DNA of 64,000 nt from an uncultured Bifidobacterium sp. Lineage in GTDB: Bacteria > Pseudomonadota > Gammaproteobacteria > Burkholderiales > Burkholderiaceae_D. The notes under the pieces are model-generated. The model made no database searches and was not told where the DNA came from. It was given only the letters and a program-made list of their open reading frames with translations. The translations under genes were made by a program, and so were the position numbers. Below are positions 1,857-4,791 of this stretch, piece by piece. The stretch covers positions 10,950-74,949 of the forward strand of contig CAZESK010000002.1 in the NCBI GenBank assembly GCA_964515155.1. Direction: 5' to 3'. How positions within the stretch are numbered: position 1 is the stretch's first letter; each line of letters begins with the position of its first letter.

Positions 1857-2861
1857 TCAAAGCCCGGCGAGGCGGGAAGCCAGCGCCGCCAGTGGCGCGG
1901 CCTTGCGCCCGGTTTGCACGGCGTCCGGACTGTTGGCATTGCCCTGCAGCGCACGCTCAGCAATGCCATGCAGGATCGCCGACATGCGGAACAGGTTGAA
2001 GGCGAGGTAGAAGCGCCAGGCCTCATCATCGACTGTCTGCCGCCGCTCCGCGTACCAGCGCCGGTAAAGCGCCTCATCCGGAATGCCGAGCGACATGAGA
2101 TCGAGACCGCGGATGCCGCGCCACAAGTCATGTGGTATGTGCCAGCTCATGCAGTGGTATGCGAAGTCCGACAGCGGATCGCCGAGCGTTGACAACTCCC
2201 AGTCCAGCACGGCGATCACCCGGTCCGCCACCGGATCGAAAATCAGATTGTCGAGACGGAAGTCGCCATGAATCAGCGTTGCCGGCTGGGCCGGTGGCTG
2301 GTGCTCTGGCAGCCATGCCATCAAGCGGCGCATATCGTCAGTGGGCGGCAGTGAGGACTGCTCGAGCTGTCGCGACCAGCGATCAACCTGACGGCTGATA
2401 AAGCCGTCGCGCCGACCGTAGTCGGACAGGTCCACTGCGTCGATATCGACCTCGTGCAGCGCGGCGATCACGCGGTTCATGTCGCGGTATATGGCCTCCC
2501 GCTCCGCAGACGACATACCGGGCAGGGACTGGTCGACGATGACCCGACCCTCGACATAGGACATCAGGTAGAACGGCGTGCCGATGACGTCCGTCTCATC
2601 GCACCATGCAATGCCCTCGGGCACGGGCACCGCGCTGCCATGCAGCGCGCGAATCACCCGATACTCGCGATCGATCGCGTGCGCGGACTTCAGCAATACG
2701 CCGGGCGGCTGCTTGCGCAATACCATGCGCGCCTCGCCCGTATCGAGCAGGTAGGTGGGATTCGACTGTCCACCGGCCAGTGGCTTCATCTGCAGCATGC
2801 CGCCGGCAAAGCCGCGCGCACGCAGCCAGTCATGCAGTCGGATCTTGTCTGCGTCGTTCAC
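1857..2861 (-). CDS. phosphotransferase (APH/kinase-like) family protein, LvaA / ACAD10-N-terminal type
   Basis: 334 aa. Has the kinase catalytic loop LIHGDFRLDNLIF and VLDWELSTLGDP. Its start overlaps the upstream SDR stop by 4 nt. Confidence 0.85.
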   Translation of the reverse strand: MNDADKIRLHDWLRARGFAGGMLQMKPLAGGQSNPTYLLDTGEARMVLRKQPPGVLLKSAHAIDREYRVIRALHGSAVPVPEGIAWCDETDVIGTPFYLMSYVEGRVIVDQSLPGMSSAEREAIYRDMNRVIAALHEVDIDAVDLSDYGRRDGFISRQVDRWSRQLEQSSLPPTDDMRRLMAWLPEHQPPAQPATLIHGDFRLDNLIFDPVADRVIAVLDWELSTLGDPLSDFAYHCMSWHIPHDLWRGIRGLDLMSLGIPDEALYRRWYAERRQTVDDEAWRFYLAFNLFRMSAILHGIAERALQGNANSPDAVQTGRKAAPLAALASRLAGL

Positions 2862-3628
2862 AGCGAACTCACCAAATGGCCTCGGTCGACGGCGATGCAG
2901 GCACCAGTCATGCCAGCGCCTGCGTCGGAAGCTAGCAGCAGCAGCGGACCGTCGAGATCAGACAGTTGACCGAATTCGCGGGTTGGTACGCGCTGACGTA
3001 GCCGCTGACCCGGCTCGCTATCGAGAAAATCGCGATTCAGATCGGTCACGACATAGCCGGGCAACAACGCATTGATACGGATCTTGTATCGTGCAAGCTC
3101 CAGCGCCATGACCTTCGTTGCCTGCACAACGCCGGCTTTCGAGATCGCATACGGTGCCACACCGGCAGCGACGCGTTCGCCAAGAATGGAGGCAACGTTG
3201 ACGATACTGCCCGGGCGGCCCGCATCGCGTAACTGACGCGCGGCCTCGGTAGCGACCAGCCAACAGCCCTTGAGATTGGTGTCGATTACGCTGTCCCAAT
3301 CGTCTTCGGTCTGATCAAGCAGACCGCGCGTGACCGTAATTCCCGCGTTGTTGATCACGATATCGCAGGCGCCTGCTTGCGCAAACGCATCGCGCACGCT
3401 GGCCGCCGATGCAACATCCAGCGCAACCACGTCAGCGCGCCTGCCCTGCGCCTGTAACGCATCGGCGAGGGCACGCAGCTTGTCGGTGCGGCGCGCGGCC
3501 AGCACGACCTCGGCGCCAGCATCCGACAGCAGCTGCGCGAAATGCGCGCCAAAACCGCTGGAGGCGCCAGTCACCAGCGCGCGCTTGCCGTCGAGCCTGA
3601 GCATCGTATCGGTACGACCAGTACTCAT
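2858..3628 (-). CDS. SDR family oxidoreductase
   Basis: 256 aa. LVTGASSGFG Rossmann motif, NNAG, and a YxxxK context (YAISKAG). 4-nt overlaps with both neighbours. Confidence 0.9.
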   Translation of the reverse strand: MSTGRTDTMLRLDGKRALVTGASSGFGAHFAQLLSDAGAEVVLAARRTDKLRALADALQAQGRRADVVALDVASAASVRDAFAQAGACDIVINNAGITVTRGLLDQTEDDWDSVIDTNLKGCWLVATEAARQLRDAGRPGSIVNVASILGERVAAGVAPYAISKAGVVQATKVMALELARYKIRINALLPGYVVTDLNRDFLDSEPGQRLRQRVPTREFGQLSDLDGPLLLLASDAGAGMTGACIAVDRGHLVSSL

Positions 3629-4791
3629 TGTGCCGCTCCGGCTGCCAGCTTCTTCGCCATGCTCCAGCGGTGAACTTCGCTCGGGCCGTCATAAATTCGG
3701 AAGGCACGCATGTCAGTAAAGATGCGCATGACTGGCGTCTCGTTCGTCACGCCCGATCCGCCCAGAATCTGTACGCAACGGTCAACCACGCGCCACTCGG
3801 CCTCCGAACACACGACCTTGGAGCGACTGGATTCGAAATTGCAGCGCTCGCCGCGGTCCAGCAGCCACGCGGTGTGCCAAATGTGCAGGCGCGCTGTCAT
3901 CAGGTCCATGTCGTTATCGGCGATCATGAAGCCTACGCCTTCATGCTCGACCAGCGGCTTGCCGAAGGCCTCGCGGCGGCGTACATAGTCCAGCGCAACA
4001 TCATGCGCGCGGCGTGCCTGTCCCAGCCAGCGCATGCAGTGCGTCAGCCGCGCCGGCGCCAGTCGTACCTGGGCATAGCGGAAGCCCTTGCCGATCTCAC
4101 CCAGCACATCGGTAGCAGGAACGCGCAGATTGGTGAATTCAACCACGCCGTGGCCACCGGCGAAGCAGCGGTCCATGGCGTCGAGATTACGCACCACGCG
4201 AATGCCCGGTGCATCCATGTCAGAGAGGAACATGGTCGCGCTGCCGTCTTCCATGCGCGCCATGATGATCGCGTAATCGGAACCGTCAGCACCGGTAATG
4301 AGCCACTTGCGACCATTGATCACATAATGGTCGCCTTCCTTCACGGCAGTAGTCATGAGCATCGACGGATCTGCGCCCGCGCCAGGCGACGGCTCGGTCA
4401 TGCAGAAGCAGGAGCGAGTCTTGCCCTCGACCTGGGGTTTGAGCCAGCGCTCCTTCTGTGCCGGCGTCGCCACCTCTTCCATCAGATGAATGTTGCCCTC
4501 GTCCGGCGCGTGAATGTTGAGCGCGGTCGGGCCCAGCCATGAGTAGCCTGCCTCCTCGAACACCACTGCCTTTTCGATATGCGAGAGACCAAGGCCGCCC
4601 AACTCGCGCGAAGCATGCGGTGTCAGCAGGCCCGCTGCACGGGCGTGCTCCACCAGCTCATCACGCAGTTCACGATGCGGGCCATGACTATCCTGGCGCG
4701 GGTCGTTTTCAAGCGGGATCACCCGCTCAGCGATGAAGCTACGCACGCGGTCGCGTAAGGCAATCAGTTCAGGGGACAGAGAAAAATCCAT
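3625..4791 (-). CDS. acyl-CoA dehydrogenase family protein
   Basis: 388 aa with typical ACAD layout (CMTEPSPGAGADPS, C-terminal IYDGPSEVHR). Confidence 0.9.
   Translation of the reverse strand: MDFSLSPELIALRDRVRSFIAERVIPLENDPRQDSHGPHRELRDELVEHARAAGLLTPHASRELGGLGLSHIEKAVVFEEAGYSWLGPTALNIHAPDEGNIHLMEEVATPAQKERWLKPQVEGKTRSCFCMTEPSPGAGADPSMLMTTAVKEGDHYVINGRKWLITGADGSDYAIIMARMEDGSATMFLSDMDAPGIRVVRNLDAMDRCFAGGHGVVEFTNLRVPATDVLGEIGKGFRYAQVRLAPARLTHCMRWLGQARRAHDVALDYVRRREAFGKPLVEHEGVGFMIADNDMDLMTARLHIWHTAWLLDRGERCNFESSRSKVVCSEAEWRVVDRCVQILGGSGVTNETPVMRIFTDMRAFRIYDGPSEVHRWSMAKKLAAGAAQ

Follow-up and report, generated by a model that had tools for sequence, protein, structure and literature searches.

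A probable lva-type module for 4-oxo- and 4-hydroxyacyl-CoAs with a kinase of separate origin in an uncultured member of the Burkholderiaceae_D

Introduction

The window described here comprises 64,000 nucleotides of contig CAZESK010000002.1 (positions 10,950 to 74,949, assembly GCA_964515155.1) from an uncultured bacterium of the lineage Burkholderiaceae_D. It carries on its minus strand three overlapping genes for an acyl-CoA dehydrogenase (ACAD), a short-chain dehydrogenase/reductase (SDR) and an APH-family kinase. Judged from its sequence, the trio is very probably an lva-type module with a function in the phosphorylation and elimination of 4-oxo/4-hydroxyacyl-CoAs. By sequence comparison the ACAD and the SDR are LvaC- and LvaD-type proteins, while the kinase groups as a paralogue of ACAD10/11-like bacterial kinases and not as an orthologue of LvaA.

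The pathway is already known from Pseudomonas putida and from mammals, and homologues of lvaABCD have been reported across the Proteobacteria (Rand 2017 as cited in PMC6692424). To the known systems the trio adds a defined variant and no new type of chemistry: its LvaC/LvaD core is paired with a paralogous kinase, is free of LvaB and adjoins a 2-hydroxyacyl-CoA lyase cassette. The levulinate/4-hydroxy-acid module is accordingly seen as a mosaic, in which a conserved LvaC-LvaD core is combined with at least three APH kinase lineages. Just one of these lineages appears to need the DUF6285 partner LvaB, a natural experiment on the role of this protein, and the three-gene module without LvaB would be a simpler option for engineering the conversion of levulinate or 4-hydroxy acids.

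Gene arrangement and predicted function

The genes follow each other in the order ACAD (P0001, 388 aa, 3625-4791), SDR (P0002, 256 aa, 2858-3628) and kinase (P0003, 334 aa, GTG start, 1857-2861), all on the minus strand. They are predicted to encode an FAD-dependent 4-phosphoacyl-CoA phosphate eliminase, a 4-oxoacyl-CoA reductase and an LvaB-independent 4-hydroxyacyl-CoA kinase, respectively. As a first-pass annotation of this DNA had claimed, they are coupled by 4-nt overlaps: ATGA at 3625-3628 joins the ACAD stop to the SDR start (caATGAgt), and GTGA at 2858-2861 joins the SDR stop to the GTG start of the kinase (ctGTGAac), both on the minus strand. Pfam assigns the N, M and C domains of Acyl-CoA_dh to the ACAD, adh_short (2.8e-49) to the SDR and APH (1.1e-56) to the kinase. 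The order ACAD-SDR-APH with 4-nt overlaps was found again on the independent metagenome contigs L038, L039, L040, L041 and L042, as well as in 12 of the 16 species loci having a P0003-type kinase, so that the arrangement is not a chance adjacency.

In the proposed route the LvaD-type SDR would reduce a 4-oxoacyl-CoA, e.g. levulinyl-CoA, to the 4-hydroxyacyl-CoA, the kinase would phosphorylate the 4-hydroxyl group with ATP, and the LvaC-type ACAD would eliminate the phosphate in an FAD-using but redox-neutral step, all three as expected from homology. The output would be a 2-enoyl-CoA or a 3-hydroxyacyl-CoA, which would enter beta-oxidation. The likeliest substrates, given the 72% identity of the ACAD to LvaC-position enzymes, would be short 4-oxo or 4-hydroxy acids, for instance levulinate or 4-hydroxyvalerate. 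That levulinate is the main natural substrate is considered less than half as probable as the module function itself. With a gene for methylisocitrate lyase in its genome, the bacterium could make use of the propionyl-CoA that arises from C5 substrates.

NCBIfam matches of the three proteins to named ACAD, SDR and APH(3') models all remain below threshold. This would suit a mere adjacency of a normal beta-oxidation ACAD, a generic SDR and an APH phosphotransferase of the antibiotic type. This explanation is hardly credible in view of the translational coupling, the recurrence of the trio across species, the HCMR motif and catalytic Asp of the ACAD, and the kinase score of 236 bits to the ACAD11 kinase domain versus just 44 bits to APH(3').

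Acyl-CoA dehydrogenase and reductase

The ACAD10/11/LvaC group was defined by Rashan et al. (PMC12440821) by an HCMR motif, an Arg eight residues before the His, and a catalytic Asp replacing Glu; in mouse ACAD11 the corresponding residues are R626, H634, R637 and D753. P0001 has the three-domain acyl-CoA dehydrogenase fold, with full-length matches in the PDB. In the HMMER alignment its segment RLAPARLTHCMR pairs with RLGPGRIHHCMR of ACAD11, with the HCMR motif and the upstream Arg both present, and IYDGPSEVH pairs with LADGPDEVH, which places an Asp at the position of D753. These residues, R243, H251-C252-M253-R254 and D368 of P0001, are invariant in alignment A1 with six relatives. The ACAD is therewith predicted to release phosphate from a 4-phosphoacyl-CoA without an external electron acceptor.

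Overall similarity of P0001 to ACAD11 is modest (198 bits), and the LvaC-position ACAD of the Pseudomonas locus L086 is on a par with it (199 bits). A second ACAD of the same genome, P0008, reaches 500 bits.

As a separate observation, the L086 enzyme (L086:10001-11173, putida group) scores 199 bits against PDB 8v3u, where canonical bacterial ACADs score 500 bits. This fits poorly with the 56-62% identity stated for LvaC and the ACAD domains of ACAD10/11 (PMC11342911), the score being that of a stand-in and not of LvaC from strain KT2440.

The SDR P0002 contains the motifs TGxxxGxG, NNAG and YxxxK. Its identity to the corresponding SDRs in two Pseudomonas loci is 58% (L086) and 54% (L085). The LvaD enzyme of P. 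putida is reported to form 4-hydroxyvaleryl-CoA from levulinyl-CoA, with NAD(P)H as the reductant (Rand 2017 as summarised in PMC6692424). The SDR could instead be a 3-hydroxyacyl-CoA dehydrogenase acting after the ACAD, in which case the module would take 4-hydroxy but not 4-oxo acids. LvaC and ACAD10 do partly hydrate their enoyl-CoA product to 3-hydroxyacyl-CoA (PMC11342911), and P0002 scores well against many NCBIfam 3-oxoacyl reductase models, all below the cut-off. We regard this late role as quite improbable, since P0002 is syntenic with the LvaD-position SDRs at the identities given above and the P. putida enzyme is reported as a levulinyl-CoA reductase. The preferred reading thus keeps the SDR as a 4-oxoacyl-CoA reductase at the start of the route.

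Comparison with the lva operons of Pseudomonas

Two loci served as stand-ins for the lva reference proteins and were compared by blastp: L086 from P. peradeniyensis (putida group) and L085 from P. citronellolis. Locus L086 reads divergent sigma-54/PrpR regulator, APH (352 aa), DUF6285 (118 aa), ACAD, SDR and AMP-binding ligase, and is thus syntenic with lvaR|lvaABCDE. Locus L085 reads APH (352 aa), DUF6285, histidine phosphatase, ACAD and SDR (255 aa), and corresponds to the levulinate-induced cluster published for P. citronellolis strain LA18T, in which the ACAD has 78% identity to LvaC and the SDR 67% identity to LvaD of strain KT2440 (PMC6692424). The ACADs of both loci share 72% identity with P0001, which, together with the SDR identities, is a similarity at the level of orthologues. 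The earlier assignment of ACAD and SDR to the LvaC and LvaD families is borne out by these values and by the hallmark residues.

With the lva operon lvaRABCDE(FG) the trio shares the ACAD-SDR order, the translational coupling and an APH kinase in the same operon. It differs in that the kinase comes from another APH clade (only 27-28% identity to the kinases in LvaA position) and follows ACAD-SDR, where LvaA precedes them; that the gene order differs was already stated in the first reading. The absence of the small LvaB partner, also claimed earlier, holds beyond the window: DUF6285 (PF19802) gave no match there or in the genome (2.44 Mb, 140 contigs, 92% complete). No LvaR-type sigma-54 regulator was found beside the trio; within the window LvaR matches only AAA+ regulators, located around 34-37 kb, at 37-39% identity and across its C-terminal half (residues 330-646 of 648). 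Neither an LvaE orthologue nor an LvaF-LvaG transporter was found at the island formed by the trio and its upstream genes, where the AMP-binding ligase is 29% identical to LvaE and the transporter belongs to the major facilitator superfamily (MFS), not to ActP/DUF485.

One detail concerns strain LA18T, in whose lva cluster no homologue of lvaB is stated to have been found (PMC6692424). P. citronellolis LMG 18378 has a 125-aa open reading frame (ORF) of DUF6285 (LvaB) type (L085:8890-9267, Pfam 1.4e-17), flanked by the LvaA-type kinase on one side and the histidine phosphatase on the other, so an lvaB homologue may have been overlooked in LA18T.

Kinase lineage and the missing LvaB

P0003 contains the HGDxxxxN catalytic loop, in the form HGDFRLDN as previously noted, and the Mg-binding Asp. 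Its similarity extends over the full length of the ACAD11 kinase domain (236 bits, ACAD11 residues 40-350), with HGDF(R/K)LDN and DWELS conserved. The match to PDB 3dxp reaches 350 bits. The LvaA kinase of L086 scores just 60 bits against the ACAD11 kinase domain.

In a quick IQ-TREE phylogeny of 89 kinases with SH-aLRT support only, which includes 31 kinases of canonical bacterial ACAD10/11-like pairs sampled across the order, P0003 falls within a clade of 18 LvaC-linked kinases (SH-aLRT 99), all or nearly all from Burkholderiales. This clade is sister (SH-aLRT 93) to the 31 canonical pair kinases, and the LvaA-type kinases form a separate, distant clade (SH-aLRT 97). The comparison with LvaA in the first-pass annotation thus needs refinement: given the separate clades and the low identity, the kinase is a paralogue of ACAD10/11-like bacterial kinases and not an orthologue of LvaA.

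Because LvaB is seen only beside LvaA-type kinases in the 80 species loci surveyed below, its absence from the window is explained by a kinase that is not of LvaA type. The kinase would descend from a duplicate of an ACAD10/11-like bacterial kinase that replaced the LvaA+LvaB pair, which would make LvaB unneeded, and we infer from this placement that it works independently of LvaB. Paquay et al. (PMC11342911) replaced the kinase and ACAD domains of ACAD10 in vitro by Q63VL0/Q63VL1 of B. pseudomallei, in a reaction described without LvaB. This result fits a one-part kinase of this broad type acting alone. Q63VL0/Q63VL1 presumably belong to the canonical clade, since their accession numbers are consecutive and a higher similarity to ACAD10 is stated for them.

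Two other explanations for the missing LvaB were rejected. That LvaB is a detached piece of the one-part kinase found no support in an hhalign comparison of 21 DUF6285 sequences, with a probability value of 0.3 against the canonical/type-b kinase alignment and of 0.1 against the LvaA alignment; LvaA and type-b kinases align with each other across 330 columns. A small ORF between the kinase and a downstream gene for a beta-keto acid cleavage enzyme (BKACE) (1544-1792, minus strand, 82 aa) has no family match and no similarity to LvaB, and was discarded as an LvaB substitute.

The kinase-ACAD fusions ACAD10 and ACAD11 of mammals (PMC12440821, PMC11342911; PDB 8v3u/8v3v) resemble the trio in that the whole ACAD11 kinase domain aligns with P0003, the equivalents of R626, H634, R637 and D753 are kept in P0001, and the two-step phosphorylation-elimination chemistry is predicted to be shared. 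They differ in that the activities lie on separate polypeptides in the window, with the SDR gene between them, and in that the window ACAD is distant at 198 bits. The earlier description of a levulinate-operon-like trio with ACAD10/11-type parts is supported by the identities, the hallmark residues and the 236-bit kinase match.

A second set of this kind is present in the same genome on contig C47 (L002:699-3824), with a histidine phosphatase, a kinase (P0007) and the ACAD P0008, which carries HCMR and the catalytic Asp. P0007 is 51% identical to P0003, and P0008 is 34% identical to P0001. In view of this canonical set the window trio is the divergent set of the genome. Compared with the canonical bacterial pair of kinase and FadE2-like ACAD, the window kinase stands in a sister clade and neither set has LvaB, whereas the ACADs are remote from each other, and the two genes of the canonical pair are not separated by an SDR gene and often have a histidine phosphatase upstream.

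Distribution among species

One genome per species was scanned with the pattern PARLTHCM, which gave at least 599 matches, and 80 loci (L043-L122) were kept. A kinase was sought within 4 kb of the ACAD; 71 of the 80 loci are fully flanked and nine lie on truncated contigs. An APH kinase was found within this distance in 53 loci. It is of LvaA type in 21 loci, with DUF6285 adjoining in 19. Window-like kinases, 50-70% identical to P0003 or P0007, occur in 16 loci, all or nearly all from Burkholderiales. Another 16 loci (Acetobacteraceae, Nevskiaceae and others) have a kinase of a third APH clade upstream of the ACAD. DUF6285 adjoins none of the 32 kinases of these two types. The remaining loci lack a kinase within 4 kb, 18 on fully flanked and nine on truncated contigs.

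Of the 53 loci with a kinase, 38 have an SDR next to the ACAD, whereas the 18 fully flanked loci that lack a kinase never do. Reductase and kinase thus travel together, which fits the sequence from 4-oxo via 4-hydroxy to 4-phospho intermediates. Homologues are very common in freshwater metagenomes (at least 8000 proteins at E <= 1e-40), so this pathway may have a part in how small oxygenated acids are turned over in lakes and rivers.

Conservation within the genus and points against the proposed function

The same-genus genomes G002 and G012 hold the full trio, with identities of 87% for the ACAD, 77% for the SDR and 65-66% for the kinase. Several observations weigh against the module function proposed above. 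Two further genomes of the genus, G009 and G013, keep the ACAD beside lyase genes without the SDR and the P0003-type kinase; their only kinase is a canonical one elsewhere in the genome. In the nearest relative, G017, whose ACAD is 94% identical, the locus (L034, G017:C47) has lost by clean deletions the SDR gene (window 2840-3625) and 280 bp within the kinase (2046-2326). A further clean deletion covers window positions 7856-11571, so that the MFS gene lacks its 3' part, the lyase its 5' part, and the ligase is gone. The island is thus decaying in G017, and together with the variation within the genus this indicates a module that is dispensable and in flux.

Among the species loci, 18 of the 71 fully flanked ones have a lone ACAD with no kinase within 4 kb, so this type of ACAD may also use a distant kinase or serve a role that needs none. 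By sequence the trio is without a dedicated lva regulator and without orthologues of LvaE or LvaFG, the island ligase being a distant relative of LvaE. A terminator-like hairpin (9-bp stem, run of 7 T; consensus match only) lies at 4813-4835 on the minus strand between the stop of a PQQ dehydrogenase gene and the ACAD start, 21 nt upstream of the latter, in a region whose count of such sites is not above shuffled expectation. A promoter was looked for and none was detected. Substrate and chain length, like the three reactions and the independence from LvaB, are read from homology.

Lone LvaC-type ACADs with the full hallmark motif and neither kinase nor SDR within 4 kb are exemplified by L099, L107 and L113 (Caballeronia) and L100 (Perlucidibaca).

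Surrounding island

Six genes precede the trio on the minus strand. The island is headed by a GntR/FCD regulator (12206-12877), followed by an MFS organic-anion transporter (10767-12116) and an AMP-binding acyl-CoA ligase (9064 to about 10770). The ligase start is uncertain, since the longest ORF extends to 11025 and overlaps the MFS gene; the ligase homologue in L041 has 565 aa. Next come a thiamine diphosphate (ThDP)-dependent 2-hydroxyacyl-CoA lyase (7343-9067; NCBIfam NF058623, 823 bits against an equivalog cut-off of 600), a Tat-exported Rieske protein (6750-7328) and a periplasmic PQQ dehydrogenase with signal peptide and a D-W-D motif (lanthanide-type Asp; 4903-6654). In this lineage the trio comes after the cassette of GntR, MFS, CoA ligase and 2-hydroxyacyl-CoA lyase and after the pair of periplasmic PQQ dehydrogenase and Rieske protein; the island is also seen on metagenome contigs.

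The GntR-ligase-lyase unit exists without lva genes in L153, L154 and L155, which makes the GntR protein the regulator of the neighboring cassette. A lyase lies within 10 kb in just two of the 80 species loci of this ACAD type. In our reading, two modules have come to adjoin each other in this lineage, and GntR, MFS and ligase belong first to the lyase cassette; the trio may share the ligase and the regulator of the cassette. Of the earlier proposal that a GntR regulator replaces LvaR, the presence of the one and the absence of the other stand, but the GntR gene heads the lyase cassette, about 7.4 kb upstream, and is not a proven replacement. A CoA ligase is present in the island, but at only 29% identity to LvaE.

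Trio, upstream ligase and lyase, fed by the periplasmic PQQ dehydrogenase, could also form one undescribed pathway in abundant freshwater Burkholderiales, with a single ligase and a single GntR sensor for both branches. Its substrate would not be levulinate but a doubly oxygenated short acid (e.g. 2-hydroxy plus 4-oxo/4-hydroxy) or diol-derived 2-/4-hydroxy acids. The nine genes are co-directional with short gaps, and the trio comes immediately after the lyase in L041 and L042 (GntR-MFS-ligase-lyase-ACAD-SDR-APH-MFS). Lyase and GntR adjoin an lvaC/lvaD module with an LvaA/LvaB-type kinase in L067, so that the juxtaposition occurs with two kinase types, and G009 has the order lyase-GntR-ACAD. 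The cassettes free of lva genes, the rarity of the lyase among the species loci and the hairpin between the trio and the upstream genes argue for separate units. Moreover, no workable chemical order is seen for lyase and trio on one CoA ester, as the lyase releases the CoA as formyl-CoA. A single pathway is therefore unlikely, and two adjoining modules are preferred.

The upstream cassette, as distinct from the trio, can be compared with the actinobacterial GntR-lyase-HCL cluster for 2-hydroxyisobutyrate (PMC7176365). Its GntR, acyl-CoA ligase, ThDP lyase and alcohol dehydrogenase follow the same logic, but the window differs in having a periplasmic PQQ enzyme, partnered by a Rieske protein, as its alcohol dehydrogenase and in the added lva module.

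The Rieske protein precedes the PQQ dehydrogenase (window 4903-7328) in place of the cytochrome c found in the homologous cassette of L155. This cassette (L155:2669-13785, Burkholderiales) comprises GntR, PQQ dehydrogenase, cytochrome c, MFS, ligase and lyase, followed by SDR and PHA synthase genes (PhaE-type, alpha/beta hydrolase).

Downstream of the trio lies the BKACE gene (368-1249, minus strand). It was rejected as a part of the module, being kept in position only in G017 and absent from the metagenome contigs. A Cys-rich ORF on the plus strand separates it from the trio.

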